64,000 bases of DNA from Gammaproteobacteria bacterium (GCA_029287435.1 JARFRD010000022.1:433-64432); one strand, 5' to 3'. Numbered from the stretch's first letter, positions 4-64,000 are shown. Notes: generated by a model not told the origin, from the letters alone. Translations and numbers: made by a program.

Positions 4-1032
4 GTGGTTCCAGTCGATTCGGCGATGTGGTGGATGTTTTTGCTGCGTGCCTACGTGGTAACGACCGGCGACTGGAAATACGCAGGATCGTCGGAGGTGC
101 AGGAATGCATGATGCAGATCCTGGACCTGTATTTAAGGGAGCGCTTCGAAAGTTCGCCGACTCTGCTGGTGCCGGACGGGTCATTCATGATTGACCGGCG
201 CATGGGGGTTTATGGCTACCCGCTGGAAATACAGGCGCTTTACTATGGCATGCTGGAGGCGGCGAAAGAGCTTATTTCGGGTACCAATGGACCACAGACC
301 GTTATTGAAAACCTGCAGGTTCGTGTCGAGGCGCTGCGGGCCTACGTGCGCTTACATTACTGGGTAGACCGCGACCGTTTGAACCAGATACACCGGTTCA
401 AGTCCGAGGAGTTCGGGCTTGGGATCGATAACGTGCTCAATGTTTATCCTGAAAGCATTCCGGGCTGGATGGACGGTTGGCTGGATAACCGCAGTGGTTA
501 CCTGGCGGGAAACCAGGGTCCGGGCCGGATCGATTTCCGTTTTTTTGCGCAGGGCAATCTTCTGTCCATCCTGTTCGGCCTTGCCACCACTGAAGAGTCC
601 CAGGGCATCATGAATCTTTTTGCCGCCCACTGGGGAGAATTGATCGGCGAGATGCCGGTCAAGATCGTGTATCCGGCCGTGCATGGCAAGGAATGGATGC
701 ATGTAACCGGCAGCGATCCCAAGAATGTCCCGTGGTCCTACCACAATGGCGGTAACTGGCCGGTGCTGATCTGGCCGTTTGTCGCCGCGGCCATGCGAAC
801 CGGGCGCGTTGAGCTGGCTGAAAATGCGCTTGAGACAATTACCGAAAGGCTCAAGCGTGATAACTGGCCGGAATACTACGATGGCAGAAAAGGTGGTCTT
901 ATTGGGCGGCGTGCTAATTTCTTTCAAACCTGGTCCGCGACCGGCTTGATCATCGCCCATCAGCTTTATGAGGATCCCGAGTTCCGTGTACTTTTAGACA
1001 GTTGCATGTATTGCGCTGAGGCTGATCAGTGA
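4..1032 (+). CDS. alkaline/neutral invertase (GH100 family), 5' end cut by window edge
   Basis: ORF is open to the window edge. Translated motifs are typical of GH100 invertases (DRRMGVYGYPLEIQALYY, WSYHNGGNWP). Confidence 0.8.
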   Translation: MVPVDSAMWWMFLLRAYVVTTGDWKYAGSSEVQECMMQILDLYLRERFESSPTLLVPDGSFMIDRRMGVYGYPLEIQALYYGMLEAAKELISGTNGPQTVIENLQVRVEALRAYVRLHYWVDRDRLNQIHRFKSEEFGLGIDNVLNVYPESIPGWMDGWLDNRSGYLAGNQGPGRIDFRFFAQGNLLSILFGLATTEESQGIMNLFAAHWGELIGEMPVKIVYPAVHGKEWMHVTGSDPKNVPWSYHNGGNWPVLIWPFVAAAMRTGRVELAENALETITERLKRDNWPEYYDGRKGGLIGRRANFFQTWSATGLIIAHQLYEDPEFRVLLDSCMYCAEADQ

Positions 1033-1070
1033 TCAAGGAGTGATCAAGGGGTCAGAGTACTTGAAAGCTG
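1031..1070 (+). repeat. family-A intergenic repeat (core GGGGTCAGAGTACTTGA with duplicated GATCAAGG head)
   Basis: Reads GATCAAGGAGTGATCAAGGGGTCAGAGTACTTGAAAGCTG. The invertase stop TGA (1030-1032) overlaps the element. Near-identical to the copy at 63861-63888, including the AAAGCTG tail. Confidence 0.85.
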
Positions 1071-1115
1071 CCCCCCTTTTTTCCGGTGAATGCACTGATT
1101 CATTAGCTGCAGCTG

Positions 1116-1541
1116 TCAGACATTGATAATCAGTGTTGCTGCAATAGCAAGCAACACAACCCCCTGAGCTGCATTGATCAACACACTCCACCGATGCAGG
1201 CGTCGAAAGCGCTCGGTAGCTCCCCGTGTGCCCAGTAACTCTTCATCGCGCATGTTATTGATCCTGGGCATCAAGGCCTGGCGTGAGAAGACAAACAACA
1301 TTGCAACCAGGAAGCAGGCCACACTGATTACCGGATGGGTATTGATCGCCAGCAAAGCGGCGACCATTGCGACGACCAGGCCCCACAGGTAATAGTGTGG
1401 AAAGAAGGCCCTGAGAAATCTGCCGGCATTTTCAGCAGGCAGCGTTTTGAACACCGTCGGCGCAACGGTAATCGCGAAGAACAGCATGCTTCCGATCAGG
1501 GCACCGACAAGGCAAATCACTAAAGCACTCACAGTAGTCAT
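1116..1541 (-). CDS. DUF4149-like (TMEM205-like) membrane protein
   Basis: Four hydrophobic helices and an FLRAFFPHYYLWG motif. Start moved to ATG 1541, which has GGAGAG 7 nt upstream; the ORF track starts at 1604. Confidence 0.55.
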   Translation of the reverse strand: MTTVSALVICLVGALIGSMLFFAITVAPTVFKTLPAENAGRFLRAFFPHYYLWGLVVAMVAALLAINTHPVISVACFLVAMLFVFSRQALMPRINNMRDEELLGTRGATERFRRLHRWSVLINAAQGVVLLAIAATLIINV

Positions 1542-1836
1542 AGGTTCTCTCCGTATTCGATTGGCAAGAGTGGTAATCCCAGGAAATTGCATAAATCCAA
1601 ACAAAGACTAGGACAATATATAGACATAAGTATATTTATATCATAATATAGCAGACAAATCATGAACATTATTTGAGAGGATATTGCCTTACAGGGGGTT
1701 CATTCAGTGAATATTGCTTGTAAGTGTATGTTATTTATATAAATAACCCGCGCGATGAACCCGACGAGCCCTACACGGGTATGTTCGACAAATACTGTTC
1801 AGGTTTAACTTTACTTACCATTCAGGAGATATTTTG

Positions 1837-2460
1837 ATGAAGACACTGACGAAAAGCGGCATGCTGGTAGCAGCATTGACGATCGCACCACTGAGCGCAC
1901 ACGCATTTATGTGCGGATCTGGCGGCAAAGGCTATGGCCCGGGGCCGGGCTATATGAAGCATGGCTACCATTCCAATCACGCTGGCTACGGCCATCCACG
2001 CATGATGCCAGGGCGTTACTATGGGGGTCAGCCCGGCTACGGACGCCCGGGCTACGCAAGGCATGGGCATCACGGCATGCAAGCGCAAAATCAGTATGGG
2101 GCCCCATATGGGCAGGCCGGCTACCCCGGTCAGCAAGCGTATCCGGCCGCAACTTATGCAGCAGCGACGAGTGCCTCGCCGGCTGTACAGTCAGATGCGC
2201 AAGGCGACACGGGTACGTCAGTGGCTATAAGTGGCATGCAATTTCAGCCCGCAACCATCAAGGTGAAGTCAGGCGAGAGCGTGACATGGTTCAACAATTC
2301 CAACATGCCGCACACGGTAACCGGTACGAGTGGAAGTGGACTGGCTTCTCAGACCATGGGTAACGGTGGCGCCTTTGCGCATACCTTCAGCGAGCCAGGC
2401 ACCTATACATATGTCTGCGCACTACACCCATCGATGACGGGCACAGTGATTGTCGAGTAG
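1837..2460 (+). CDS. secreted cupredoxin (plastocyanin/pseudoazurin-like) with G/Y/P/H-rich N-terminal region
   Basis: Signal peptide MKTLTKSGMLVAALTIAPLSAHA. C-terminal type-1 copper motif is YVCALHPSMTG (Cys-x2-His-x3-Met). AGGAG lies 8 nt before ATG 1837. Confidence 0.75.
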   Translation: MKTLTKSGMLVAALTIAPLSAHAFMCGSGGKGYGPGPGYMKHGYHSNHAGYGHPRMMPGRYYGGQPGYGRPGYARHGHHGMQAQNQYGAPYGQAGYPGQQAYPAATYAAATSASPAVQSDAQGDTGTSVAISGMQFQPATIKVKSGESVTWFNNSNMPHTVTGTSGSGLASQTMGNGGAFAHTFSEPGTYTYVCALHPSMTGTVIVE

Positions 2461-2470
2461 GTCAATCACA

Positions 2471-3738: not shown

Positions 3739-3893
3739 GCTCGCTCTGGATGACAAACCTTATAGCATGGACAAAAACTGGACATTACGTAGTTATTCTT
3801 GACCGAGCACTGCCCTGGATGCTGGGCAGAGGATCGATCGGGCAGCAGGGTTTTTGATAGGTGGTTTGCTTCCAGTAAATCAAGGTCAATAGA

Positions 3894-3928
3894 GGGTACG
3901 GAGGGATTAAACTTTAATCCCTCGTACC
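3894..3928. repeat. family-B-like hairpin variant
   Basis: GGGTACGGAGGGATTAAA / TTTAATCCCTCGTACC forms an imperfect 16-bp stem. It is preceded by an A-type head (AAATCAAGG). Confidence 0.6.
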
Positions 3929-4154: not shown

Positions 4155-4194
4155 TATCAAGTACTCTGACCCCTTGATTTCACCCCTTGATTTC
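4155..4194 (-). repeat. family-A intergenic repeat
   Basis: The plus strand reads ATCAAGTACTCTGACCCCTTGATTTCACCCCTTGATTTC. This is the reverse complement of the A core plus a duplicated head. Confidence 0.85.
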
Positions 4195-4198
4195 TTTA

Positions 4199-5011
4199 TT
4201 AAAAAGAGCCGCAATCCGCGGCTTTTTTTTCTTGATCCTGGTTGAGTTCACTCACCATTTGATCATTGATCCAGCGCTGTAAATACCCCACGGCCTGCTG
4301 CGGCGTCTCCTGTTCGCTGAAATACTCCAGCAGCGCTGTGCATATATCCGCAAAGCTGCCTGCCGACAACGCAATCGTCAGTGCCACGCTTTCTGCCTGC
4401 TCCAGGGCGCGATACTGGCTAACCAGATCCTGGCGCCAGATTAACCAGGTTGTTTCATCTTCAGTTTTTTGCGGCGGTGCCTCCTCGTTGCTAAGTGCCC
4501 GCCAGATCTGGAAACTATTATATTGTTGCGGCAACAACTGTACGGCACCATGAAAACGCAGTGTCAGGGTCGCCCATGCTTCAGGATCCAGTTGAGCCAG
4601 TTGCTCAAGTGAAGCGCACTGGCAATCGGCTGCATCGAAGCTGTTGCCGAAGGCCAGCTCGATACGGGCAATCTCGGCGACTTCCGGTAACTGCCTGAAT
4701 GGTTCCTGCTGCTCGACCAGCTTGGCTATGTGCTGACCGAAATAGCGCAGGCTGGGATGGTGTGATGGGTAGCTTTCGATGTACTTCTCCATCAGTGTTT
4801 CAAACAGATCATCCCCGAGGTAACCGTGCAGGCATTCATAGTCGGTGGTGAGCGCTTCCTTCAAGCGCAGCTTATAGGCATTGCCATAAAACGCCATACG
4901 CTGCTCTGCTGAGCGGCGGGGGGTGGATTCAATGCGTTCGACGATGCCGACGACTGTATCATCCAGCAGGTATCCCAGAAAATCCTGCTGCAGTTTACGC
5001 AGTGCGTGCAT
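4199..5011 (-). CDS. bufC: DUF2063-family protein (BufC-type partner of the MNIO enzyme)
   Basis: 270 aa. It overlaps the upstream DUF692 gene by 17 nt. The position and family match the DUF2282-DUF692-DUF2063 operon architecture. Confidence 0.7.
   Translation of the reverse strand: MHALRKLQQDFLGYLLDDTVVGIVERIESTPRRSAEQRMAFYGNAYKLRLKEALTTDYECLHGYLGDDLFETLMEKYIESYPSHHPSLRYFGQHIAKLVEQQEPFRQLPEVAEIARIELAFGNSFDAADCQCASLEQLAQLDPEAWATLTLRFHGAVQLLPQQYNSFQIWRALSNEEAPPQKTEDETTWLIWRQDLVSQYRALEQAESVALTIALSAGSFADICTALLEYFSEQETPQQAVGYLQRWINDQMVSELNQDQEKKAADCGSF
4201..4230. terminator. bidirectional rho-independent terminator overlapping the 3' end of bufC
   Basis: A5-AGCCGC-AATCC-GCGGCT-T8. The hairpin sits inside the last codons of the 4199-5011 ORF. 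Confidence 0.6.
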
Positions 5012-6546: not shown

Positions 6547-6597
6547 AAAGGGGTCGGAGTGATATAATTTTAATCACTCCGACCTATTTTTTTGGGC
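6547..6597. repeat. family-B hairpin repeat
   Basis: AAAGGGGTCGGAGTGATATAATTTTAATCACTCCGACCTATTTTTTT. The 12-bp stem is GGTCGGAGTGAT/ATCACTCCGACC. Confidence 0.9.
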
Positions 6598-6732
6598 CCC
6601 TTTTGCAGAATAAGATGCTGGATATGCTCAGGCAGGACATATCGGGGAAGACGTGCCATTTAGCACCTCCAGGTGCATAATAGGTTTACGAAGGTTTCTT
6701 CCTGCAGTGCTAGCAGGACAAGGACGCATGCC

Positions 6733-7960: not shown

Positions 7961-9301
7961 ATGTTAATCATACTTCATGGATGGAGTGATACCTATACAT
8001 CATTTAAAAAACTGGCAAGCTGGATTTTAAAGCAGAATATTTACAATGATATTCATCATATATATCTAGGAAATTACGTCAGTTTAGATGACGATGTGAC
8101 GTTTAATGACCTGGTTGAAGCAATGCAGGCTGCCTGGATTAATGAGGACCTGCCAACTGAGCCACGAAGTGTTGATGTTATAGTGCATAGCTCTGGCGGA
8201 CTTGTCGTTCGTGACTGGATGACTTCGTACTATAAACACGATACAAACCCTGTTCATAGACTCCTCATGTTAGCGCCTGCTAATTTCGGTTCGCATCTTG
8301 CCCATAAAGGGAAGTCATTCATTGGTAGAGTATTCAAGGGTTATAAATCTGATAAACCATTTCAAACGGGCACTCAAATCCTTAATGGCCTTGAATTAGC
8401 CAGTCCTTATTCCTGGGAGCTGGCGAGAAGAGATTTATTCGGTGGGTCAACATGGTACGGGCCAGGCAAAGTGTTGTGTACTGTTCTTATAGGAACAGAG
8501 GGGTATAGTGGTATTTCATCGATAGGCAACCAGTCTGGTAGTGATGGAACAGTTCCAGTTTCCTGTGCAAATCTAAATGCCAGCAGGCTGGTTCTTGATT
8601 TTGCCACTGATCCACAGAATCCAACAGCGCGGCCAATGGGGGCTCGAGGGGTTACAGCTTTTACACGGATACCACTGGAAAATCATTCAACAATTGCATT
8701 TAAAGATAATGGCCCAAAAAATGAAAAGACATTTGAACTAATACTTAATGCCCTTACTGTGACTGATGATTCATTTGACAGCCATTGTGATGAGTTAGAT
8801 GCTTTTTCTTCAAATGCACGGTTAGATGGCGAAGCTGATCCGTATACCCATGGATACCAGAATACTGTTGTGCATCTTGTTGATAACTTGGAAACGGATG
8901 TTAAAGATTACTTTTTAGAGCTGTTCATTAAAGAGCAGAATAATTCAATAACGATTGATGATTCAATGACGAGCATACTTCAGGAAAATGTAGTTACTAA
9001 GGTTCATATCTATAAAGAAAACTCTGCATACCGTAGCTTAATGATTAACTGCAGCAGGCTAGATGAGTTATCACCAGCAATATCAGGTCCACTATGCATT
9101 GCTATTACTGCTCTTCCTGACATTAATCAGACTAAATCAGTGGGCTATGATACTTTTGCATGGGATGCTATTGATAGCTTGAAATTGGATTCAAATACAA
9201 GAAAACAGTTTTTTAAATCCGATCGCACTGTCTTAGTGGAATTTAGCATCAAACGAAAACAAACAGAAAAAGTGTTTAGTTTTAATAAGCATCCTAAATG
9301 A
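7961..9301 (+). CDS. alpha/beta-hydrolase (lipase/PGAP1-like) N-domain protein with unassigned C-terminal region
   Basis: ILHGW...HSSGG (GxSxG-type elbow) and LAPANFGSH motifs. AAGGAGA lies upstream. AT-rich: one sampled 60-nt line counts 32% G+C. Confidence 0.55.
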   Translation: MLIILHGWSDTYTSFKKLASWILKQNIYNDIHHIYLGNYVSLDDDVTFNDLVEAMQAAWINEDLPTEPRSVDVIVHSSGGLVVRDWMTSYYKHDTNPVHRLLMLAPANFGSHLAHKGKSFIGRVFKGYKSDKPFQTGTQILNGLELASPYSWELARRDLFGGSTWYGPGKVLCTVLIGTEGYSGISSIGNQSGSDGTVPVSCANLNASRLVLDFATDPQNPTARPMGARGVTAFTRIPLENHSTIAFKDNGPKNEKTFELILNALTVTDDSFDSHCDELDAFSSNARLDGEADPYTHGYQNTVVHLVDNLETDVKDYFLELFIKEQNNSITIDDSMTSILQENVVTKVHIYKENSAYRSLMINCSRLDELSPAISGPLCIAITALPDINQTKSVGYDTFAWDAIDSLKLDSNTRKQFFKSDRTVLVEFSIKRKQTEKVFSFNKHPK

Positions 9302-9307: not shown

Positions 9308-9350
9308 GATCAAGGGGTCAGAGTACTTGATTTGAGTACTTGATTTTTTT
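9308..9350 (+). repeat. family-A intergenic repeat with duplicated tail
   Basis: GATCAAGGGGTCAGAGTACTTGATTTGAGTACTTGATTTTTTT. Confidence 0.9.
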
Positions 9351-13517: not shown

Positions 13518-13543
13518 GATCAAGGGGTCAGAGTACTTGATTT
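13518..13543 (+). repeat. family-A intergenic repeat
   Basis: GATCAAGGGGTCAGAGTACTTGATTT. Confidence 0.9.
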
Positions 13544-16868: not shown

Positions 16869-18223
16869 TGAATTCACTGCAACTGAGGTTGGTGGCTGGC
16901 CTCGTGGTCAGCCTGCTGGCCCTGTTTGCGCTGCTCGCGCTGCTGGCCGCTCCGGCGATCCGCAACCTAGCTGAAAACAACATGGCGAGCCGCCTGCAGC
17001 ATGACAGTGAAACACTGCTCGCGCTACTGCAGGTCAGCGGGGATGGTGATATCAAACTCGACCGGAGTGCGGTATCACAGGTCTACACTCGTCCTTATTC
17101 CGGGCATTATTTCCAGATACAAAGCGACGTAAAGCAGATCACTTCACGTTCATTATGGGATTCCCGGCTGTCGGTGCCAGGGCAGGTGCAGGCGTCTGAC
17201 GTGCTGCATGCAACAGGACCCCTGGACCAACCACTGCTGATGGCGGTGCACGATTACCGTAAAAACAGTATACCGGTGCAAGTAATCGTTGCTGAGGATC
17301 TCACCGCACTGGAGTCGGACATTCAGCAATTCAAACAGCGATTTGCACTGATTGCCGGCATGCTGCTGATCATCCTGGTGGTTATCCAGGTGCTGATTAT
17401 TCGTGGCGGTCTGCAGCCACTGAAGCGGCTGCGCCAGGAGCTGCGGCAGCTCGAGTCAGGTGAACTGGTGCGGCTGTCAGAAAAGGCGCCAGCGGAAATC
17501 CAGCCGATGATCCTGGAGATTAATCGGCTGATTGATGTCCTCGGCAAGCGTTTGCAGAGGTCACGCAATGCCCTCGGTGATCTTGCGCATGCATTGAAAA
17601 GGCCATTGACGGTATTGACCCGGCTGAGCGAGGAGACGGAAGTAGAAAAAGTGCCCGGACTGCAGAACAGCCTGCAGCGGCAGCTGCAATCAATGCGCAC
17701 GACCACTGACCATATTCTCAAGCGTGCACGGCTCGCCGGGGAGAGCCCGGTTGGTCCGGGATATGATGTGGTATCCGAGATCAATTCCCTGGTCGACACG
17801 CTGCAGAAAATGTACCCGCAGAGGAATCGCAAGATTGAAACCGATATTGGCGCAGGACTGCGTAGTCCACTCGACCGCGAGGACTTCCTTGAACTGCTCG
17901 GCAACCTGCTGGATAACGCTTTCAAGTGGGCTACTGGAACGATTCGGCTGGTAGTAAGGGGTGATGATTCCGTACTCAGGATCAGGGTGGAAGATGATGG
18001 GCCCGGTATTGCCGAGGATATGCTCGCCACACTGCGCCGGCGTGGCAGCCGGGCTGATGAGCAGGTCGACGGTCACGGGCTTGGGCTGGCTATCGTCCAT
18101 GACATTACGGATCTATATGGAGGCAGCCTGGAGCTTGGTCGCTCGGAGACTCTCGGCGGCCTGGCCGTAGAGGTCGTTCTCAATATTCATGAGAAGAGGA
18201 TATCAAGTACTCTGACCCCTTGA
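16868..18223 (+). CDS. sensor histidine kinase
   Basis: Two TM helices, a HisKA H-box (LGDLAHALKRPLT) and HATPase motifs (LGNLLDNAFKW, DDGPGI, GHGLGLAI). The last 8 codons and the stop lie in repeat A. Confidence 0.85.
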   Translation: MNSLQLRLVAGLVVSLLALFALLALLAAPAIRNLAENNMASRLQHDSETLLALLQVSGDGDIKLDRSAVSQVYTRPYSGHYFQIQSDVKQITSRSLWDSRLSVPGQVQASDVLHATGPLDQPLLMAVHDYRKNSIPVQVIVAEDLTALESDIQQFKQRFALIAGMLLIILVVIQVLIIRGGLQPLKRLRQELRQLESGELVRLSEKAPAEIQPMILEINRLIDVLGKRLQRSRNALGDLAHALKRPLTVLTRLSEETEVEKVPGLQNSLQRQLQSMRTTTDHILKRARLAGESPVGPGYDVVSEINSLVDTLQKMYPQRNRKIETDIGAGLRSPLDREDFLELLGNLLDNAFKWATGTIRLVVRGDDSVLRIRVEDDGPGIAEDMLATLRRRGSRADEQVDGHGLGLAIVHDITDLYGGSLELGRSETLGGLAVEVVLNIHEKRISSTLTP

Positions 18224-18240
18224 TTCGGACCCCTTGATTC
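18201..18240 (-). repeat. family-A intergenic repeat carrying the stop codons of two convergent genes
   Basis: The plus strand reads ATCAAGTACTCTGACCCCTTGATTCGGACCCCTTGATTC. TGA 18221-18223 ends the kinase gene and TCA 18203-18205 ends the minus-strand gene. Confidence 0.9.
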
Positions 18241-23570: not shown

Positions 23571-23594
23571 TCAAGTACTCTGTCCCCTTGATTC
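23571..23594 (-). repeat. family-A repeat (one mismatch)
   Basis: TCAAGTACTCTGTCCCCTTGATTC. Confidence 0.75.
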
Positions 23595-23696: not shown

Positions 23697-24971
23697 ATGA
23701 AACTGGAATCTCTGGCACTGCACCATGGCTATAAATCTGAACCGACCACCAATGCGGCTGCGGTACCGATCTACCAGACAACATCCTATACCTTTGATGA
23801 TACACAGCATGGCGCAGACCTGTTTGATTTGAAAGTGCCTGGCAATATCTACACACGTATCATGAACCCGACCACGGATGTGCTTGAGCAGCGCCTGGCT
23901 GAAATGGAGGGGGGTATCGGGTCGCTGGTGGTGGCCTCTGGCATGGCGGCAATCACCTACGCCATTCAGTGTATTACCAGCAGTGGTGACAACATCATCA
24001 GTACCAGCCAGCTGTATGGCGGCACCTACAACCTGTTCGCCCACACCTTTCCACGCCAGGGCATTGATGTACGCATGGCATCTTTTGATGATTACGATGG
24101 CATGGAGAGTCTTATCGATGATCGAACGCGTGCCGTATTCTGTGAGTCGATCGGAAACCCGGCCGGGAATATCGTCGATCTCGAACGCCTGGCCGATATC
24201 GCGCACCGTCACGGTGTGCCACTGATCGTTGACAACACCGTTGCCACGCCCTACCTGTGCCGGCCATTTGATCACGGTGCAGATATCGTCATTCATTCAC
24301 TGACCAAGTATATCGGCGGTCATGGGACAACGATTGGCGGCGTCATCATTGATTCAGGAAAGTTTGACTGGGTAGCGAATAAGGAACGTTTTCCAATGCT
24401 TAACGAGCCCGATCCTTCCTACCACGGCGTCGTTTATACAGAAGCGCTGGGTCCTGCGGCGTACATAGGCCGGTGCCGGGTTGTTCCACTACGAAACACA
24501 GGTGCCGCACTGGCACCGCACAGTTCATTCCTGATTCTGCAGGGACTGGAGACCCTGGGCCTGCGCATTGAACGACATTGTGAGAATGCGCAGGCTGTCG
24601 CTGAATACCTTAGCAAGCATCCACAGGTTGAATGGGTACGCTACGCAGGATTGCCTGACAGCGAGTATCATGAAACCTGTCAAAAGATCACGGCTGGCAG
24701 GGCCTCGGGCATCCTCAGCTTCGGTATTAAAGGCGGTGCGGAAGCGGGTGCACGCTTCATTGATGCCCTGCAGATGATCCTGCGCCTGGTGAATATCGGT
24801 GATGCGAAATCACTGGCTTGCCATCCTGCTACCACAACACACCGCCAGCTTGGACCGGATGAACTGGCTAAAGCAGGTGTCTCTGAAGACATGGTCAGAC
24901 TCTCAATAGGTATCGAACATATTGACGATATCATTGCTGACATCGAGCAGGCACTGGAAGCTTCTGCGTGA
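23697..24971 (+). CDS. metY: O-acetylhomoserine sulfhydrylase (PLP-dependent)
   Basis: 424 aa. LALHHGY...PIYQTTSYTF...HSLTKYIGGHG (PLP lysine motif). Confidence 0.9.
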   Translation: MKLESLALHHGYKSEPTTNAAAVPIYQTTSYTFDDTQHGADLFDLKVPGNIYTRIMNPTTDVLEQRLAEMEGGIGSLVVASGMAAITYAIQCITSSGDNIISTSQLYGGTYNLFAHTFPRQGIDVRMASFDDYDGMESLIDDRTRAVFCESIGNPAGNIVDLERLADIAHRHGVPLIVDNTVATPYLCRPFDHGADIVIHSLTKYIGGHGTTIGGVIIDSGKFDWVANKERFPMLNEPDPSYHGVVYTEALGPAAYIGRCRVVPLRNTGAALAPHSSFLILQGLETLGLRIERHCENAQAVAEYLSKHPQVEWVRYAGLPDSEYHETCQKITAGRASGILSFGIKGGAEAGARFIDALQMILRLVNIGDAKSLACHPATTTHRQLGPDELAKAGVSEDMVRLSIGIEHIDDIIADIEQALEASA

Positions 24972-24988: not shown

Positions 24989-25030
24989 AAAGGGATCGGA
25001 GTGATTTAATTTTTAATCACTCCGACCCTT
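24989..25030. repeat. family-B hairpin repeat
   Basis: AAAGGGATCGGAGTGATTTAATTTTTAATCACTCCGACCCTT, 18 nt after the metY stop. Confidence 0.9.
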
Positions 25031-25413: not shown

Positions 25414-25455
25414 AAATAGGGGACAGACCTCAATTAAATGGACCTCAATTAAATG
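25414..25455 (+). repeat. family-C repeat with duplicated tail
   Basis: AAATAGGGGACAGACCTCAATTAAATGGACCTCAATTAAATG. Confidence 0.8.
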
Positions 25456-25741
25456 TATCTTAAATGTATCTTTTTTTAAATGTATCTTTTTATTCGGATA
25501 TCAGGGAACAGCGTGAGCGGATACAGAATTCGATTCATTACAGGGTTTGAAAAATACAAAATGCCCCCACATCTATTGTTATCGTCTATGCTTGTAAAGA
25601 TGAGTGAGACGATAAAGGTTTGCATTTCATAATGGTTTTCAAGAAGTCCAGAAGTAACCCCGGTTCCATCCCGAATTTCCTGTTTTACCTCTCGTGTTTT
25701 GCATTTATTAACTAAGTAATTATTATAAAGAGGTATGTATC

Positions 25742-25939
25742 ATGAATGGTACCGTTAAATGGTTTAACGACTCCAAGGGGTTTGGCTTTATTACTCCAGA
25801 CGATGGCAGCAGGGACGTGTTCGTGCATTTTTCTGTCATCCAGGCCGAAGGCTATAAGAGCCTGGCGGAAGGAAAGCAGGTCGAATATGATGTTGAAAAT
25901 GGTCCTAAAGGTCCACAGGCCAAACGCGTTACTTTCTAG
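25742..25939 (+). CDS. cold-shock protein (CspA family)
   Basis: [19 protein letters not shown]...VFVHFS (RNP1/RNP2 motifs). Confidence 0.95.
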
Positions 25940-26038
25940 ATTGATTTCTGGAATTACACGGCTCATGCCGTCTGGGGAGCAACCGGCGGTGAGTGCTGCC
26001 GGTTCTTCACCGTTTCAATTTTTACAAAAGGCAGCACT

Positions 26039-28417: not shown

Positions 28418-28444
28418 AAAGAGTCGGAGTGATTTAATTTTTTG
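28418..28444. repeat. family-B repeat, left arm only
   Basis: AAAGAGTCGGAGTGATTTAATTTTTTG. Confidence 0.7.
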
Positions 28445-39937: not shown

Positions 39938-40014
39938 AGGGGGTCAGACCCCGGTTTGCCCCTCAGTTAAATCACACCGACCCTTGTTGAATTAAATTAC
40001 TTCGACCCCTTAAA
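39938..40014. repeat. stacked repeat fragments (C-type palindromic core plus two B-type right arms)
   Basis: AGGGGGTCAGACCCCGGTTT, then TTAAATCACACCGACCCTT, then AATTAAATTACTTCGACCCCTTAAA. Confidence 0.7.
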
Positions 40015-40690: not shown

Positions 40691-41374
40691 ATGCTCGAAG
40701 AGTTCGCACCCTCTCTTTATATTGCCGACGGACCGGAAGTACAGTTTTATGGTTTTCCGTACCCCACTCGCATGGTGGTTGTACAGCTCTCGGATGGGAA
40801 TGTGTGGGTGTGGTCTCCGGTAGCACTGACCGACGAACTGGTCATTGCAGTAGACGCCATCGGACCGGTTCGCTATATCATTTCGCCAAACAAGATCCAT
40901 CATCTTTTCCTTTCCGAATGGGTGGAACACTGGCCTGAAGCCAGTCTCTTTGCGCCGCCCGGTCTCGCAAGCAAGAAGCCCGAACTAAACTTTGTTGCAG
41001 AACTTGGTGACGAACCTCACCCAGGTTGGGCAACAGACATCGACCAGGTGATCTTTCATGGCTCACTGGCGATGGAAGAAGTCGTTTTCTTTCATCGTGC
41101 ATCGCGAACAGCGATTATTTGCGATCTTATTCAGCGACACCCGGAATCAAAGATGACAGGCTGGAAGGGGATGTTGATGCGACTTGATAGTCTGGTTGGT
41201 GAGCGAGGCAGCACACCACGCGAGTGGCGTGCAACTTTCCTCCGGCGCGGACCAGCGCGTGCTGCACGTGAAGAGGTACTAAGCTGGAAACCCGAGCGGC
41301 TGGTTATCGCACATGGCGAGTGTGTTCAGCACGGAGCGTCACCGATTATCGCCGATGCACTGAGCTGGATCTAG
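40691..41374 (+). CDS. DUF4336-family protein
   Basis: TRMVVVQLSDGNVWVWSPV...GPVRYIISPNKIHHLF pattern recalled for DUF4336. Confidence 0.7.
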   Translation: MLEEFAPSLYIADGPEVQFYGFPYPTRMVVVQLSDGNVWVWSPVALTDELVIAVDAIGPVRYIISPNKIHHLFLSEWVEHWPEASLFAPPGLASKKPELNFVAELGDEPHPGWATDIDQVIFHGSLAMEEVVFFHRASRTAIICDLIQRHPESKMTGWKGMLMRLDSLVGERGSTPREWRATFLRRGPARAAREEVLSWKPERLVIAHGECVQHGASPIIADALSWI

Positions 41375-41392: not shown

Positions 41393-41428
41393 GATAGTAG
41401 ACAGACCACGATTTAAAATATCGATATG
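41393..41428 (+). repeat. family-C repeat
   Basis: GATAGTAGACAGACCACGATTTAAAATATCGATATG. Confidence 0.8.
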
Positions 41429-43488: not shown

Positions 43489-43604
43489 GGATCAAGAGGT
43501 GGATCAAGGTGTCAGAGTACTTGAATTTAATTATAGAGATCAAGGGGTCAGAGTACTTGATTTTGAGTACTTGATTTTTAGATCAAGGGATCAGAATATT
43601 TAAC
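43489..43604 (+). repeat. cluster of three family-A copies
   Basis: GGATCAAGAGGTGGATCAAGGTGTCAGAGTACTTGA, then GATCAAGGGGTCAGAGTACTTGATTTTGAGTACTTGATTTTTA, then GATCAAGGGATCAGAATATTTAAC. Confidence 0.9.
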
Positions 43605-44749: not shown

Positions 44750-44874
44750 TTATGCAGCAGAAGGCTGGGTAAATGAAGCAAGATAATCATGGTGTGTCCA
44801 CTATTGTTGCCTATTGTTTGTTCTCTACTGTTATCCTATTGTTATTGTTTATTCGCGCTAGAGGAAACTGAAGA

Positions 44875-47455: not shown

Positions 47456-47612
47456 GACAGGACAGTATATAGCAGTTTTTGTTTAAACGGACATAAATTG
47501 TGGTTAACCAGACATATTTCCCCAACTGCTTTATCTCTATGATTTATCTCAACCAGTGGTCCAACATGTCTGTTGGTGCTGGCAACCGATTAATCAATCA
47601 AGGGGAAATGTC

Positions 47613-48371
47613 ATGAGAATATCGAAAAACCATATAAAACAATTACTTGTTTTGAGTGTCCTGGTGAGTGTTCCAGCGCTTGTATTTGCTGCACTACCCA
47701 ATCCAGGTATGCAGTTTGATCCGGTGCGTACGGCAATTGTGATCACAGACCCACAAAATGACTTTTTAAGCGAAAAAGGCGTAACCTGGGGTGTTGTTGG
47801 CAAGAGTGTGGTCGAGAACAACACGGTGCAAAACATAGAAAGTTTGTTCAAGGCCGGAAAGAAGTATGATGTGCCGGTTTTTGTTTCGCCACATTATTAC
47901 TATCCCACAGATCATGGCTGGAACTTTGAAGGTGCGCTGGAGGCCTTGATGCACCAAATCAAGATGTTCGATCGTAAAGATGCCCTGAGCCTGGATGGTT
48001 TTGATAAATCCGGTGCGGACTGGCTTGCTCAGTATTACCCGTATATAAAAGACGGTAAGACTGTCGTCACCAGCCCGCATAAAGTCTATGGCCCGGATAC
48101 CAATGATCTGGTGCTGCAGCTGCGCAAGCGCGGGATCGATAAGGTCATCCTGGCCGGCATGTCTGCAAACCTGTGTGTTGAATCACATATGCGCGAACTA
48201 CTCGAACAGGGGTTTGAAGTAACAGTAGTTAAAGATGCAACGGCAGGCGCCCAGGTACCTGAAGGTGACGGTTATCAGGCCGCCCTGGTGAATTTCAGGT
48301 ATATGGCGAATGCAGTGGTTACAACAGATGATGCTGTGAAGGCCATTTCTACAAAGTCTGATCTCAAATAA
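47613..48371 (+). CDS. secreted isochorismatase-family cysteine hydrolase
   Basis: TAIVITDPQNDFL and AGMSANLCVESH motifs. Signal peptide. AAGGGGA precedes ATG 47613. Confidence 0.85.
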   Translation: MRISKNHIKQLLVLSVLVSVPALVFAALPNPGMQFDPVRTAIVITDPQNDFLSEKGVTWGVVGKSVVENNTVQNIESLFKAGKKYDVPVFVSPHYYYPTDHGWNFEGALEALMHQIKMFDRKDALSLDGFDKSGADWLAQYYPYIKDGKTVVTSPHKVYGPDTNDLVLQLRKRGIDKVILAGMSANLCVESHMRELLEQGFEVTVVKDATAGAQVPEGDGYQAALVNFRYMANAVVTTDDAVKAISTKSDLK

Positions 48372-48390
48372 GACCTCAACACAATAATTA

Positions 48391-48446
48391 GCGGACAGAC
48401 CACGTTTACTGATATTGAGATGTAGCTGAGATATCGTGGTCTGCCC
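48391..48446. repeat. family-C inverted-repeat pair (56-bp hairpin element)
   Basis: GCGGACAGACCACG (48391-48404) and CGTGGTCTGCCC (48435-48446), followed by TTTTTG, 20 nt after the stop codon. Confidence 0.85.
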
Positions 48447-48577
48447 TTTTTGTTAATATCCAGAACTATCTTTCATGTACCTTCATGTAACATTCACATG
48501 CTGTTAACTCTTTATTGATCTGTATTGTGAGAATCTATACACAGATTCAATATCAATTTAAACAACAGGAGTTAACA

Positions 48578-49228
48578 ATGGGTAAAACTAAAATCGCAGC
48601 AGCAATGCTAACGTTTGCTGCAATGAGTGTGTCCGCCAATGCCATCGCTGCGGACAGCAATTACGTCGGTATCCACGGCATGTGGACTGATCTGAAAGAT
48701 CTGGACTTTAATGTGGCCCCGGGCACGATCGACACGGAAATCGACTCTGGCACTGGATTTGGCATTACCTTCGGTCGTACTTTTGGTCAGATTCGTGGCG
48801 AAGTCGAATACACGGCACGCATGAATGATGTGAAATCACATTCTCTCAATGGCGGGGAGGCACTGCCCGGGAGTACCGGTGAAGTGAAAAGTGACGCATT
48901 CATGGTCAATGGTTACTATGATATAGATACCGGAAGCATGTTTATACCCTACATCGGTGCTGGGCTTGGTATGGCAAAGGTCAAGTTCGATAACTTCGGT
49001 GTTGCACCGATCCCGGATGTACTCAATGAAGATGATACCCAGTTCGCCTACCAGTTTATGGCGGGTGGTGATTTCATGGTCACTGACAAAGTCCGTTTAT
49101 TTGCTGAATACCGTTACTTCACCACCAGTGATGTCGATGTTACAACTTCCGCGGCAACTGGTAGTGTCGGCAACAGCATATCGTACAAAACCAATAATGT
49201 GCTTCTTGGTGCACGCTTCATGTTCTGA
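48578..49228 (+). CDS. outer-membrane beta-barrel protein (OmpA-like/OMP_b-brl family)
   Basis: Signal peptide ending ANA-IA, alternating beta-strand pattern, and a C-terminal ...GARFMF. Confidence 0.75.
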   Translation: MGKTKIAAAMLTFAAMSVSANAIAADSNYVGIHGMWTDLKDLDFNVAPGTIDTEIDSGTGFGITFGRTFGQIRGEVEYTARMNDVKSHSLNGGEALPGSTGEVKSDAFMVNGYYDIDTGSMFIPYIGAGLGMAKVKFDNFGVAPIPDVLNEDDTQFAYQFMAGGDFMVTDKVRLFAEYRYFTTSDVDVTTSAATGSVGNSISYKTNNVLLGARFMF

Positions 49229-49241: not shown

Positions 49242-49288
49242 TTAAGGGGGCCGGAGTGATTAAATTAAATCACACCGGCTCTTTTATT
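49242..49288. repeat. family-B hairpin repeat
   Basis: TTAAGGGGGCCGGAGTGATTAAATTAAATCACACCGGCTCTTTTATT. Confidence 0.85.
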
Positions 49289-51159: not shown

Positions 51160-51185
51160 TTAATAGGGGACAGACCACGATTTCC
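51160..51185 (+). repeat. family-C repeat
   Basis: TTAATAGGGGACAGACCACGATTTCC. Confidence 0.9.
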
Positions 51186-53209: not shown

Positions 53210-53241
53210 TCCACACAAATATGCTGCAGGGAGCCATTGAT

Positions 53242-54366
53242 ATGAGAAAAACGTTCATAAACCTGTCTATTTTAGTTCCGATAATACTATTGTCGGCATG
53301 TGATTCGAATGAAGTATCTGAAAACAGCACGCCTGCGAATACTGAAGAAAAGGCCGCTGTGCAGACGACAGACCAGCAGCAAGTTGCTGCTCCTGTAGAG
53401 TCAGAGACCAGGGCAGAGTCAGAGTCTAAGGTAGAACCAGAGATTATGGCTGCTGCACCAGCTCTTAGCGGTGAAGCCTTATATACCAGTGACAAGGCAC
53501 CGGACTCGATGCTTTATGACAAACCGCAAAAGGTCATTGATGGCGTCTGGTCTGCTATCGGTGCTACGGCACCGGCCAGGTATGAAAACTCGGGACATAA
53601 CAATAACCTGTCCTTTGTTATTACCACTGAGGGCGTTCTGGTCGTCAATGCCGGCGGCAGTTACCTGCTGGCAGAGGCTTTGCATACAGAAATAAAAAAA
53701 ATCACCGACCAGCCCGTCAAGTATGTAGTGCTGGAAAATGGACAGGGCCATGCGATGCTCGGTTCAGGTTATTGGAAAGAGCAGGGCGCGACAGTGATCG
53801 CGCATAAAGATGCAGCACACGAGATTGAAGAGAAATCGCTTGATATTCTTGAGCAGCAAAAAGAAGTTCTGAAGGACAAGGCTGACGGCACAAAAGTTGT
53901 GATGCCCGATGAGACCTTTGAAGATAAAAAGATAATTGAAATGGGCGGCGAGCGTATAGAACTGCTTAACCTGGGCCCAGCACACAGTCCGGGAGATATC
54001 ATTGTCTGGCTGCCGCAAAAACAGCTGGTGATTTCCGGAGATATGGCTTTTCATCAACGTATGTTGCCATTGTTTGAAGAAACAGATACCGCCGCCTGGA
54101 TAGAAAGCTGGGACAACTTTGCTGCCCTGGACGCGAAATATGTCATTCCGGGACATGGTGAGCCAACTGATATGGCAGAGGTTACGCGTTACACAAAGGA
54201 CTACCTGGTTTTTCTTCGCGAGAAGGTGGGTGCAGTCCTCGAAGATGGCGGATCACTGCTGGAAGCCTATGAAATTGATCAGTCTGATTTTATGCATTTA
54301 CCAACAGCCGAATTTTTGTCCAAACGCAATGCCGGGCAAGTCTTTCAGTCGATGGAGTTTGAATAA
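53242..54366 (+). CDS. MBL-fold lipoprotein with degenerate metal-binding motif
   Basis: Lipobox LLSAC. MBL-like LGPAHSPGD and IPGHGEP are present, but the HxHxDH position reads ENGQGH. Confidence 0.6.
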   Translation: MRKTFINLSILVPIILLSACDSNEVSENSTPANTEEKAAVQTTDQQQVAAPVESETRAESESKVEPEIMAAAPALSGEALYTSDKAPDSMLYDKPQKVIDGVWSAIGATAPARYENSGHNNNLSFVITTEGVLVVNAGGSYLLAEALHTEIKKITDQPVKYVVLENGQGHAMLGSGYWKEQGATVIAHKDAAHEIEEKSLDILEQQKEVLKDKADGTKVVMPDETFEDKKIIEMGGERIELLNLGPAHSPGDIIVWLPQKQLVISGDMAFHQRMLPLFEETDTAAWIESWDNFAALDAKYVIPGHGEPTDMAEVTRYTKDYLVFLREKVGAVLEDGGSLLEAYEIDQSDFMHLPTAEFLSKRNAGQVFQSMEFE

Positions 54367-54370: not shown

Positions 54371-54404
54371 AATAGTAATAATAGGGGACAGACCACGATT
54401 ACAC
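54371..54404 (+). repeat. family-C repeat
   Basis: AATAGTAATAATAGGGGACAGACCACGATTACAC. Confidence 0.9.
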
Positions 54405-57134: not shown

Positions 57135-57170
57135 GATCAACTACTCTGACCCCTTGATTACCTTGATTAC
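57135..57170 (-). repeat. family-A intergenic repeat
   Basis: GATCAACTACTCTGACCCCTTGATTACCTTGATTAC. Confidence 0.8.
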
Positions 57171-57189
57171 TTCATAATTTTCCCTTTAT

Positions 57190-58281
57190 CTACTTCTTTA
57201 TTACGTAGTAATCATTCTGGAAATCATGCTCCAGCTGATGGATTACGATGTCGGTAAAACCAGCTTCAGTTAACAGTTCCTGCGCCTTCTCCTGTCCCCA
57301 CATGGTACCGAGGCCATCACCCCCCTGGGCAAGTGAAACGGTCATGCAATGAGTGGTTGAGAGCGTGTACAGCAGCGGGCCAACCGGGTGGTCCATGTTG
57401 TTCTGTACTTCACTGGAACCATGAATGTCCTGCATCAGGTAAATCCCGTCATCCGTTAACGTACGATTAATACCCTTAAGAACATTCAATGGTTTTGCCT
57501 GGTCGTGAACGGCGTCGAATGTTGTTATAAAGTCATAGCGTGCGTGACTGTCCTGCTGGTCGAAATCGGTCACGTCTCTGATCTGAAAGTCGACATTGCG
57601 CAGACCTTTTTTTGTTGCTTCCCGGGTGGCATATTCAATGGCTTCTGCAGACAGGTCGACACCAACAAAAGTGCTGTGTGGATACAACTCGGCGAGCAGG
57701 GTTATTGCACGGCCACGGCCGCAGCCAACATCGAGCACCTTAATGCCCTGCTCAAGCTTCTCTTCCAGTCCAGGTATCAGTGGCAGGATGTGCTCTGTCA
57801 ACGACGCTAGCACGGTCTGGCCGCTATCTTCGGCCATCACTTCGTGGAAGCGCGGGAACTTTTCATACGGCACGCCGCCGCCATTCCTGAAACAATCGAT
57901 GATGTCATCTTCAACTGTTCCCATCATCGGTATGTATTGGGCGAACACCGAGATGTTGCCTTCAGTTGAACCGCGGGTAAGCCACGATGCGTGTTCATCA
58001 GGCAGGGAATAGGTTCTGTCGTGCGGGTGATAGTCGATGACCTTGCTGACAACCAGTGCGTTCAGCCATTCGCGAACATAGCGTTCATTGAGACCTGCAC
58101 CATCAGCGAGTTCTGCGCTGCTCACGCGACCAAGCTTTTCAAGATGGTCAAACAGTTGTGTTCGGTGGCCGATAGACAACATGACACATAATGCCCCTTC
58201 ATTGAGTGCATTGACCAGGCGGTCAGCAAAGCTGTCAGATTTTTCGTGATCAAACTGGGGTAACTGGCAATTTAGACACAT
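57190..58281 (-). CDS. class I SAM-dependent methyltransferase with N-terminal winged-helix-like domain
   Basis: VLDVGCGRGRA (motif I) and a downstream acidic motif. Confidence 0.8.
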   Translation of the reverse strand: MCLNCQLPQFDHEKSDSFADRLVNALNEGALCVMLSIGHRTQLFDHLEKLGRVSSAELADGAGLNERYVREWLNALVVSKVIDYHPHDRTYSLPDEHASWLTRGSTEGNISVFAQYIPMMGTVEDDIIDCFRNGGGVPYEKFPRFHEVMAEDSGQTVLASLTEHILPLIPGLEEKLEQGIKVLDVGCGRGRAITLLAELYPHSTFVGVDLSAEAIEYATREATKKGLRNVDFQIRDVTDFDQQDSHARYDFITTFDAVHDQAKPLNVLKGINRTLTDDGIYLMQDIHGSSEVQNNMDHPVGPLLYTLSTTHCMTVSLAQGGDGLGTMWGQEKAQELLTEAGFTDIVIHQLEHDFQNDYYVIKK

Positions 58282-59187: not shown

Positions 59188-59217
59188 AAAATTATCGTAG
59201 TCTGACCCCTACTATTG
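59188..59217 (-). repeat. family-C repeat (reverse orientation)
   Basis: The reverse complement reads CAATAGTAGGGGTCAGACTACGATAATTTT. Confidence 0.75.
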
Positions 59218-59230: not shown

Positions 59231-60178
59231 ATGAAAACTTATTCAATCCTGTTACTGGCAATTTTTTGCTTTAGTACTCAGCAGGCCTCTGCACTTCAGT
59301 GGCCACACTTAGAGCCTAAAAAAATCGGCCCACATACCTATGTCATAGAACATGGGCCGCATGATGAAGACCCGAAAGTGAGCCATGGGTTTCACAATAA
59401 TCCGGGTTTTGTTGTGACCGATGACGGTGTTGTCGTTATTGATACCGGCAGCAGTTATGAAATCGGCAAAATGATCCTGCGAAAAATTAAAACGGTAACC
59501 TCCAAGCCCATTACTCATATTTTTACAACGCATTTCCATGGCGATCACTGGCTGTCAAATCAGGCGCTGGTCGAGGCATACCCTGATGCGCTCACCGTTG
59601 CACATCCCGAACTGATTACCTTGTTAAAAAATGGAGAAGATAAATTCTGGCTGGATCGCTTTGCCGAACGGCTGGGTGATGAGGCCTTTGCAGGAACCAA
59701 AGCGGTTATACCGAATACGCCGGCAGAAAATAAAGCCTACCAGATTGGTGGTGTGACGTTTCAGGTTGTGTTATTTGATCAAGCGCATACGACGACTGAC
59801 TTGATGGTTTATGTTGAAGATGAGGGTGTGCTGTTTACCGGTGATATTGTCAACAACGAACATTTCTCATTTATGGGGCATGGTAATTTCAAAGGCGCCT
59901 ATGAAGCGACTCAAAAAGCACTGACCTTCAATGCAAATCACGTTGTCGTGGGTCATGGAAAAAGCGGTAATCAAGATCTGATTAAAACATTTGGGGCGAT
60001 TTACCAGAAGCTACAGGCAATAATCAGGAAATTTTATGAACAGGACATGATGGATTATGAAATGAAACCCAAAGTCATTGCCGAGTTTGAAGAATACAAA
60101 CAGTGGAGTGGTTTTGACAATCAGATTGGGCCGTACATCAGCCAGATAGTTCTGGAACTGGAAAAAGAATCGTTCTAA
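59231..60178 (+). CDS. secreted MBL-fold metallo-hydrolase
   Basis: Canonical THFHGDHW motif and a signal peptide. Confidence 0.8.
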   Translation: MKTYSILLLAIFCFSTQQASALQWPHLEPKKIGPHTYVIEHGPHDEDPKVSHGFHNNPGFVVTDDGVVVIDTGSSYEIGKMILRKIKTVTSKPITHIFTTHFHGDHWLSNQALVEAYPDALTVAHPELITLLKNGEDKFWLDRFAERLGDEAFAGTKAVIPNTPAENKAYQIGGVTFQVVLFDQAHTTTDLMVYVEDEGVLFTGDIVNNEHFSFMGHGNFKGAYEATQKALTFNANHVVVGHGKSGNQDLIKTFGAIYQKLQAIIRKFYEQDMMDYEMKPKVIAEFEEYKQWSGFDNQIGPYISQIVLELEKESF

Positions 60179-60233
60179 CAATAGTGGACAGGGTATGATT
60201 AGAGGTAATCGGGGACAGATCACGATTATATTT
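60179..60233 (+). repeat. family-C repeat (two partial cores)
   Basis: AATAGTGGACAGGG...AATCGGGGACAGATCACGATTATATTT. Confidence 0.7.
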
Positions 60234-63032: not shown

Positions 63033-63764
63033 GGCCCATGCCTTCCATAGCAAGGACCCGCCGCTGCCAAGCAGCAGTACACCAATTACAGCTAGCATTT
63101 GGCGGCGGCTAATTCCCAGGTGTACCCGGTTCCCTAAATAAAGACCAAGGCCCAACAGTGGTAGGGCCAGCAGTATCGAGCTCAGCATATCAGTCTGCAG
63201 CAGCAAACCCATGACCAGGAAGGTGACGATGCGCAGTGCGCCATCCAGCATGAAGAGGCCGGACAAGGTCCCGCGCAACTGTGTTTTATCGTGCAGGCGG
63301 TGCGAGAGATAGACCACGAAGGGCGGTCCGCCAGTACCAAACATGGCGCCGATCAAACCACCACTGAGGCCGGTCGGTAGCGACCACCAGCGGCTTGTCG
63401 GCTTTTCGCTGTGTACATTAAACAGGTAACGCAATCCGAAGAATATGACGAACAAGCCCAGGCCAATCAGCAACGGTTCACGTGGAAGATTAACCAGCAA
63501 CAATGCTCCGATCAGAATACCGGCAATACTAGCAGGCAAAAGGCTGCGGATCTCATCCCAGCGCACCTGCAGGTGCGTATGACGACTAAGCACTACCGAT
63601 GCAATGAAATCCAGCACCAGCACCAGCGGCACGACAAAAGTCAAAGGCAGGAAATGTGCGAGCAGGGGAATCGCAATCAGGCCCGAGCCGAAACCGGTAA
63701 TACCGCGTATGAAGTAGGCAAGCAGCAGAATAAAAAAGGCGGCAAGATAAATATCAGGCGTCAT
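63027..63764 (-). CDS. TauE/SafE-family sulfite/anion exporter
   Basis: 245 aa with 7-8 TM helices and GFGSGLIAIPLL and GTGGPPF motifs. Confidence 0.85.
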   Translation of the reverse strand: MTPDIYLAAFFILLLAYFIRGITGFGSGLIAIPLLAHFLPLTFVVPLVLVLDFIASVVLSRHTHLQVRWDEIRSLLPASIAGILIGALLLVNLPREPLLIGLGLFVIFFGLRYLFNVHSEKPTSRWWSLPTGLSGGLIGAMFGTGGPPFVVYLSHRLHDKTQLRGTLSGLFMLDGALRIVTFLVMGLLLQTDMLSSILLALPLLGLGLYLGNRVHLGISRRQMLAVIGVLLLGSGGSLLWKAWAL

Positions 63765-63860
63765 ATAAAAAGTTCAGCTTTGGCGGGATAGTGTTGAAAC
63801 AGATTACTTTGGCCCCCGATGATAAGCGATTTTATCGGCATGGTGTATTTGGAAAAAGAA

Positions 63861-63888
63861 TCAAGGGGTCAGAGTACTTGAAAGCTGT
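63861..63888 (+). repeat. family-A intergenic repeat
   Basis: TCAAGGGGTCAGAGTACTTGAAAGCTGT. Confidence 0.9.
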
Positions 63889-63916
63889 CCAGTCTTTTTC
63901 ATAGATTAAGTATCAA

Positions 63917-63961
63917 TTAAAGGGGTCGGAGTGATTTAATTTTTAGCAGCCGCCCTTTAAG
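63917..63961. repeat. family-B repeat (left arm intact, right arm diverged)
   Basis: TTAAAGGGGTCGGAGTGATTTAATTTTTAGCAGCCGCCCTTTAAG. Confidence 0.8.
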
Positions 63962-64000
63962 AATAATAGGGGACAGACCACGTTTTACGATATCGAGATA
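63961..64000 (+). repeat. family-C repeat, runs to the window edge
   Basis: GAATAATAGGGGACAGACCACGTTTTACGATATCGAGATA. Confidence 0.9.

Follow-up and report, generated by a model that had tools for sequence, protein, structure and literature searches.

The window analyzed here, a stretch of 64,000 nucleotides from a Gammaproteobacteria bacterium (GCA_029287435.1 JARFRD010000022.1:433-64432), carries three interspersed families of short repeats, A, B, and C, that share the core GGGGWCRGA. The locus raises the question of what kind of element these repeats are and which enzyme, or enzymes, they belong to. The answer favored here, at a probability of roughly 0.82, is that they are TIRYT or "TIRtron" terminal inverted repeats in solo, tandem, and back-to-back (hairpin) form, with each family cognate to its own TIRYT paralogue. 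The window's contig (C62) belongs to a bin of 2.62 Mb in 218 contigs, which is 77% complete with 4.5% contamination.

Repeat families and the transposase genes they bracket

The short-repeat families, which a preliminary description had found by eye, are real. The core matches the window 22 times against 1.61 expected, a number reached in 0 of 100 shuffles. The Family A 21-mer TCAAGGGGTCAGAGTACTTGA occurs in 10 copies at ≤1 mismatch (0 expected), besides partial heads and tails; the Family B arm GGGGTCGGAGTGATT is matched 10 times, at 8 places, against 0.15 expected; and Family C, TAGGGGACAGACCACGATT, gives 11 matches (0.03 expected), or about 13 with two GGGGTCAGACCCC variants included. Together, the three families reach a density of ∼1 element per 1.8 kb. 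They do not form a complete set, as the same contigs hold at least two further core-sharing families, namely, a ATGGGGTCAGAGGGCAAT...ATTGTTCTCTGACCCCAT doublet at the end of C62 (G000:C62:64440-64510) and CTGGGGTCAGATCCCAGTTT doublets on contig C86 (G000:C86; L137:250-312 and 2360-2425). A core match at 54982 lies within an open reading frame (ORF) without family context and is probably due to chance. No RNA family of Rfam fits the repeats: at gathering thresholds, the window yields a match to cspA alone.

A scan of public metagenome contigs with the Family A 19-mer retrieves at least 120 contigs from sediments and soils of varied G+C content, in which the usual form of A is an inverted pair with a spacing of 10 to 50 nt. 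In two of these contigs, an ORF starting with MARLPRIVV follows an A copy after ∼70 nt. Although the contigs were chosen solely for the 19-mer, TIRYT homologues are found by tblastn in 14 among the 120 listed, 5 of them full length. Three contigs (L074, L021, and L128) show the TIRYT gene between two inverted A copies, a layout that recurs in the reference genome G216. The other two families show the same association. Family C repeats bracket an intact TIRYT gene of 230 codons in another gammaproteobacterium (G321:C11), with ∼50 nt between the left repeat and the ATG and 7 nt between the stop codon and the right repeat, and Family B repeats bracket a TIRYT gene cut after 89 codons (G295:C41). 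In G004, a single-contig genome of the bin's genus, the variant TCAAAAGGGTCAGAGTCGNTTGAAA lies on either side of a TIRYT gene at 1.994 Mb; it has 45 occurrences from 0.22 to 2.74 Mb, a span of ∼2.5 Mb. Family A is present in 17 of 401 sampled Gammaproteobacteria genomes from 14 genera, mostly with 1 to 5 copies and in one case with 45, whereas the reversed control gives 0; TIRYT homologues are found in 9 of 10 A-bearing genomes, with 11 matches in G321 and 9 in G295. Dispersed gene-less copies occur elsewhere as well (45 in G391 and 25 in G141).

The encoded proteins belong to a described class of RAYT-like Y1/HUH tyrosine transposases. The ORF of metagenome contig L017 comprises 238 amino acids (aa) with the motifs NHVHLL, LWEGRY, and YRYIELNPV and matches Pfam Y1_Tnp with 57 bits, and three homologues score 74.5 to 81 bits with the NCBIfam model for REP-associated tyrosine transposases (cutoff of 80); the 230-aa protein of G321 has NHVHLL, LWEGRF, and YRYIEFNPV. 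Both carry the signature of TnpA-Y1 subclass 2.1, which comprises ∼238 aa with NHVH as the HuH motif, W[EQ], and YIELNP as the Y motif (PMC6006769), with YIEFNP as the form found in G321. Quentin et al. in 2018 equated subclass 2.1 with Bertels group 1 and with the TIRYTs of Di Nocera et al. (PMC6006769). The latter authors described in 2013 that the terminal inverted repeats flanking TIRYT genes share the sequence GGGGWSAS and that some of these repeats form moderately abundant families arranged in dimers and clusters like REPs (PMC3733652). For Bertels group 1, the flanking 16-mers are modestly abundant, with an average of 12 per replicon (PMC5581495). Judged by sequence, the shared core of the window's repeats is this GGGGWSAS tag, with GGGGTCAG in Family A and GGGGACAG in Family C. 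The preliminary description had not recognized the repeats as any named REP or miniature inverted-repeat transposable element (MITE) family; with the class named since 2013 (PMC3733652), that claim of novelty falls. What is new is the dense, multifamily, orphan example, while the kind, TIRYT end-repeats, is already known and barely studied.

Several points weigh against the assignment to TIRYTs. The core of Family B, GGGGTCGG, differs from GGGGWSAS at one position (position 7). The TIRYTs flanked by Family A are only 50 to 61% identical to each other and 52% identical to the C-type protein, so that the link between protein and repeat is not a simple one. Quentin et al. saw no REP-like sequences around subclass 2.1 genes (PMC6006769), and the literature holds no biochemical demonstration of mobilization, terminal-repeat binding, or cleavage for any TIRYT. 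Finally, neither the window nor the 77%-complete bin contains an intact TIRYT gene or, by PF01797 and tblastn, any Y1 transposase gene, and the cognate enzymes of these copies therefore are unseen. The exact repeat 13-mers yielded nothing relevant in a literature search or in the text and supplements of the TIRYT papers (PMC3733652 and PMC6006769).

The repeats share the outer GGGGWSAS with TIRtrons, as well as the bracketed Y1/HUH gene of ∼230 to 240 codons (NHVH, WE, and YIELNP), the gene-less singles, dimers, and clusters, and the patchy distribution across taxa. They differ from the published TIRtrons in that the window's copies are orphans with no intact gene, that at least five related families occur on one contig set, and that the density of ∼1 per 1.8 kb contrasts with the average of 12 flanking 16-mers per replicon for group 1.

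An assignment to canonical REPs or REPINs of a classical RAYT, or to MITEs of a DDE transposase, would also account for extragenic repeats with inverted doublets, and a flanking Y1 gene is common to both systems; the NCBIfam model "REP-associated tyrosine transposase" scores three homologues with 74.5, 80.6, and 81.0 bits, close to its cutoff of 80. REP/REPIN-RAYT systems (Nunvar 2010; PMC3116915; structure of the Escherichia coli TnpA-REP, PMC3479197) resemble the present case: a single-copy Y1 gene is flanked by short extragenic repeats, inverted doublets fold into long hairpins, every gene has one cognate family, and genomes hold several families. However, the GT[AG]G guide tetranucleotide and the CGTC tag are absent from the A, B, and C consensus sequences, a single unit does not fold into a stable GC-rich hairpin, and the protein has NHVH and YIELNP (subclass 2.1) instead of DHLH and YIHYNP (subclass 2.2). 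Moreover, the repeat is nearly invariant across distant hosts instead of lineage specific. As to MITEs, the copies lack fixed-length target-site duplications, and no DDE transposase adjoins any copy examined. Both classical assignments are thus extremely improbable. IS200/IS605 elements and their gene-less palindromic derivatives share with the TIRYT elements the HUH/Tyr domain, a presumed single-stranded DNA chemistry, and the lack of a fixed target-site duplication. They are set apart by the low score of the NCBIfam IS200 model NF033573 (22 to 26 bits against a cutoff of 55), the E values of 0.012 to 0.13 for IS200-type TnpA in the PDB, a Y motif here of the form Y---NP and not Y---Q, terminal inverted repeats in place of subterminal hairpins, and the absence of tnpB. 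The finding of the Y1 genes led us to set aside integron attC sites, uptake sequences, Tn3-type ends, and ribozymes, which had been considered as well.

One enzyme or several cognate paralogues

The preliminary description had proposed a single recognition system behind the shared core. The shared core does point to a recognition system of one kind, and a single TIRYT enzyme that reads GGGGWCRGA and mobilizes all three families would fit several observations. The outer 8 to 10 nt are common to all families, the B arms differ from A at only ∼4 of 19 positions, and recognition seems tolerant of protein divergence, considering that the A-flanked TIRYTs vary as described above while their 19-mer is identical. 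The left ends of A, B, and C also adjoin each other at 63861 to 63985. Against this stands the finding that elsewhere every family brackets its own TIRYT gene, which makes three paralogue lineages more likely than one enzyme. Genomes with several families, such as G321 and G295, carry several paralogues, and for RAYTs, the published rule pairs each gene with a single cognate repeat family. A common enzyme for the three families is accordingly unlikely. Families A, B, and C, together with at least two more, are better read as related repeat lineages, more likely served by three cognate TIRYT paralogue lineages.

By analogy with RAYTs, the TIRYT enzymes would nick and rejoin single-stranded DNA at the repeat ends and would spread gene-less copies in trans, as is presumed of RAYTs for REPs and REPINs. 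Only intergenic copies, chiefly those just 3′ of stop codons, would survive. The transposase genes would then decay, leaving remnants such as those at 6588 to 6659 and 63861 to 64000. We infer this mobilization from the association of gene and repeat and from the RAYT precedent.

Remnants of this kind bear on the earlier statement that the window holds no transposase. It holds no intact gene, in agreement with that statement, but 24 N-terminal codons of a TIRYT gene, MARLPRYVLPEHIQHLILQKG..., remain at 6588 to 6659(−); they match the TIRYT N terminus (compare MARLPRIVVPGQALHIVQRGN of L017) and read directly into the B hairpin at 6550 to 6586. The second site, 63861 to 64000, lies at the contig's right end and consists, in order, of an A left end with leader, a B left end with leader, and a C end, which are followed by a further doublet type. 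The A left end and its leader of ∼40 nt (63861 to 63920, +) have no gene after them, and the leader has a homologue in L049, where it precedes the start codon of a TIRYT gene. The B left end with the leader-like sequence gatttaatttttagcagccgcc (63922 to 63965, +) resembles the left end of the B-flanked TIRYT of G295:C41, and the C end at 63967 to 63985(+) is the third in this cluster of left ends. In metagenome contigs, TIRYT genes are truncated by or fused to A repeats (L049:286-470, L017:12921-13030, and L097:4029-4441). Those genes, from related sediment samples, are cut by A after ∼20 to 33 codons or persist as internal fragments between two A ends. These sequences indicate that TIRYT genes decay while their end-repeats persist.

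Architecture and position of the copies

Single A and C units are solo ends, and B copies and doublets are hairpins. Folded as single strands, single A and C units are weak (−1.5 to −3.1 kcal/mol, z scores of −0.4 to −2.7). The 6-bp stem-loop first ascribed to Family A is a palindromic end pair of 5 to 6 bp with −3 kcal/mol and a z score of about −0.4. A covariance model of A with its flanks finds 186 copies in 100 other contigs, in which the invariant TCAAG/CTTGA pairing is kept and the sixth pair is kept in part (UA in 70, AU in 37, and unpaired in 41). The outer positions are paired in about 50% of 150 copies from other contigs, near chance, and a repeat whose short ends are palindromic therefore describes the unit better than a "conserved loop in a 6-bp stem" does. 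A covarying stem around a conserved loop, sought with this model at 100 loci, is rejected, since pairing beyond the sixth pair is at chance level. The B copies of the window fold into strong hairpins (−13 to −15 kcal/mol, z scores of −4.7 to −6.5), with the B element built as an inverted doublet of the arm AAGGGGTCGGAGTGATT; the differences of this arm from the A unit are those named above. Inverted doublets of the REPIN type that form long hairpins also occur in Family C, where the pair at 31795 and 31865 folds with −21.4 kcal/mol and a z score of −6.7, and in Family A, where the doublet in L022 forms a long hairpin with a z score of −11.2. Within the window, Families A and C occur mostly as singlets.

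Among the B copies, the hairpin at 6550 to 6586 pairs two inverted GGTCGGAGTGAT arms (−14 kcal/mol, z score of −5.8) and is followed by T7. The one at 24992 to 25029 (−15 kcal/mol, z score of −6.5) lies 20 nt past the metY stop codon between convergent genes, and that at 49247 to 49281 lies 18 nt past the stop of ORF 48515-49228(+), with a T-rich tail and a terminator-like look. A single B arm is located at 28420 to 28434(+), 27 nt past the stop of ORF 28087-28392(+). A cluster at 39940 to 40009 combines a palindromic GGGGTCAGACCCC variant (39940 to 39952) with two B-like arms on the minus strand (39970 to 39984 and 39995 to 40009). Two further elements, at 34597 to 34657 and 3880 to 3928, had been taken for hybrids of an A head and a B hairpin; they are B-type hairpins whose TCAAGG head is complete or duplicated, and B arms elsewhere (L103) likewise start with TCAAGGGG. 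The first is a degenerate B hairpin with an A-like ATCAAGG head (34605 to 34655, −), and the second is a diverged, B-like hairpin (3895 to 3928, −13 kcal/mol) with GGGTACGGAGGGATT arms and, before them, a partial AAATCAAGG head.

Most Family C copies are solo ends. Four of them follow stop codons on the plus strand: 41395 to 41413, 20 nt past ORF 40691-41374(+); 48389 to 48407, 17 nt past ORF 47556-48371(+); 54382 to 54400, 15 nt past ORF 53221-54366(+); and 60209 to 60227, 30 nt past ORF 59231-60178(+). A GGGGTCAGACCCC variant at 31292 to 31304(−) lies 19 nt past the stop of ORF 31324-31764(−). The inverted doublet at 31795 to 31883 consists of the units 31795 to 31813(+) and 31865 to 31883(−). 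A solo end at 51164 to 51182(+) lies in a divergent intergenic region, and a copy with a duplicated tail at 25417 to 25435(+) lies in the divergent region upstream of cspA. The cspA thermoregulator match (88.7 bits, gathering score of 78) extends over 25618 to 26007(+), spanning the cold-shock gene and its leader, ∼180 nt downstream of this C copy.

Family A is represented by solo ends at 1044 to 1064(+), 11 nt past the stop of ORF 4-1032(+); 4157 to 4177(−), 21 nt past the stop of ORF 4199-5011(−) and co-oriented with it, with a 13-nt head duplication; 9310 to 9330(+), 8 nt past the stop of ORF 7961-9301(+), with its tail GAGTACTTGATTT duplicated and followed by a T run; 13520 to 13540(+), which is intergenic; and 57137 to 57157(−), 32 nt past the stop of ORF 57190-58281(−) and co-oriented, with a 9-nt head duplication. 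A tandem pair at 43504 to 43560(+) consists of the copies 43504 to 43524 and 43540 to 43560 with a tail duplication. A copy with the GGGGACAG variant lies at 23571 to 23591(−) in the divergent region 5′ of metY. The solo end at 18203 to 18223(−) sits at the stop codon of a 723-aa gene and is the special case among copies that, by the window's ORF map, are all intergenic: its palindromic TGA ends provide the stops of both convergent ORFs. The same map upholds the earlier observation that copies lie between genes and are enriched at 3′ ends.

The clear A and C copies 8 to 32 nt past a stop codon are co-oriented with the upstream gene in 9 of 9 cases, on both strands, and GC skew is positive throughout the window. 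A counterexample is an A copy on contig C90 (L138:790-815), which lies 12 nt past a stop codon in the opposite orientation. With this copy, co-orientation is 9 of 10 (one-sided P of ∼0.01), a lead only, as the cases are hand-picked. Two C copies farther from their stops are oppositely oriented: one with 3 mismatches at 44785 to 44803(−), 113 nt past a plus-strand gene, and the C-like solo end GGGGTCAGACTACGA at 59193 to 59211(−), 80 nt past a plus-strand gene.

This placement could suggest that the elements are primarily RNA signals of the host, such as 3′-untranslated-region stabilizers or intrinsic terminators, with an incidental link to transposases. The nine co-oriented copies are in line with such a role, as are the T runs that follow the B hairpins at 6550 and 49247 and the GGGGTCAGACCCC variants, which are terminator-like by score. 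Intrinsic terminators and BIME-type REP clusters of E. coli likewise lie just past stop codons, and in some B copies a T run follows the hairpin. Most copies here, however, have no T run or stable stem, and single A and C units lack a stable fold. Several copies are found in divergent promoter regions (23571, 25417, 31795/31865, 51164, and 6550), and the C90 copy past a stop codon has the opposite orientation. A terminator scan of the region from 22 to 42 kb flagged the GGGGTCAGACCCC variants alone and did not call the B hairpin after metY, which has no T run. The sequences also recur as repeats, and in many unrelated assemblies, transposase genes lie between them. A primary role as host RNA signals is therefore very unlikely, and the copies remain best explained as TIRYT end-repeats; some of the B hairpins that precede T runs have probably come to serve as terminators as well.

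The copy at 18203 to 18223 gives a view of insertion. In four relatives, the 723-aa gene has orthologues that finish with ...CGN ATC TGA and lack the element, and thus the A copy is an insertion at this stop codon. The gene in the window ends with CGA ATC AAGGGGTC CGAATC AAGGGGTCAGAGTACT TGA; because the duplicated head holds the host-derived CGAATC, the partial duplications arise in place. Many metagenome copies, as well as the window's copies at 1044, 4157, 57137, 9310, and 43540, carry similar junction duplications of 9 to 16 nt. At the 1044 copy, the head duplication comprises 11 nt (GTGATCAAGGA/GTGATCAAGGG) and takes in the host stop codon. These "stutters" are tandem duplications across the junction of host flank and element head (or tail) and extend over 1023 to 1047, 4174 to 4198, 18224 to 18240, 57158 to 57175, 9331 to 9345, and 43561 to 43575; the unit at 1030 to 1047 includes the host stop codon, and that at 18203 includes the last two host codons. 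At the 3′ end of metY, the window has a B hairpin, whereas G004 has a C doublet and an inverted A-like unit; this one site has been filled independently. TIRYT end-repeats could conceivably be REPIN-like populations with a distinct insertion pathway, in which copies enter within ∼30 nt past stops, follow the direction of transcription and not of replication, and may leave 9- to 16-nt stutters in each event, although this proposal is a doubtful one. If it were true, the footprints would suggest that the target is single-stranded DNA exposed by transcription and that repair after an HUH nick involves template switching.

Distribution in the bin and meaning

The repeats are unevenly distributed in the bin. 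Of 54 core matches, 25 lie on C62, and the remainder is at chance level except on the small contigs C86, C90, C96, and C125; the sequence RGGGTCAGAGT is restricted to these five contigs. Together, the repeat-bearing contigs amount to ∼124 kb, or 4.7% of the bin, compared to an estimated contamination of 4.5%. The O-acetylhomoserine sulfhydrylase gene metY is present twice in the bin, at 23697 to 24971(+) in the window and at G000:C134:1810-3075(−), with 83% identity, compared to a single copy in each of four genomes of the same genus. The doubled metY, the share of the repeat contigs close to the contamination estimate, and the chromosome-wide cognate family of G004 make it fairly probable that the repeat-rich contigs represent a second, related population co-binned with the main one. 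Confinement of the repeats to five contigs could also result from a local cluster of 64 kb near a lost TIRYT gene; this is less likely than co-binning, given that the cognate family in G004, from the same genus, is spread evenly across the chromosome.

At 107 nt past the window's right end, C62 terminates in CTGTCTCTTATACACATCT (G000:C62:64521-64539; L135:322-340), which we take to be the Nextera transposase adapter; it is adapter contamination at the assembly end. Repeat copies frequently lie ≤150 nt from a contig start (G391:C7:5-19, G295:C41:13-31, G185:C23:133-151, and G141:C16:41-55), which suggests that the repeats break short-read assemblies.

TIRYTs form the second largest branch of Y1 transposases and occur in ∼15% of sampled strains, yet they are little studied: the literature on the class amounts to two papers, one of which reports no associated repeats. 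The repeats differ sharply between close genomes and thus expose chimeric bins and break short-read assemblies. The contig set described here indicates that TIRYT end-repeats can form dense, multifamily, gene-less populations like those of classical REPINs, outliving the transposase genes, and it offers a useful natural case of how HUH enzymes seed and maintain short repeats.

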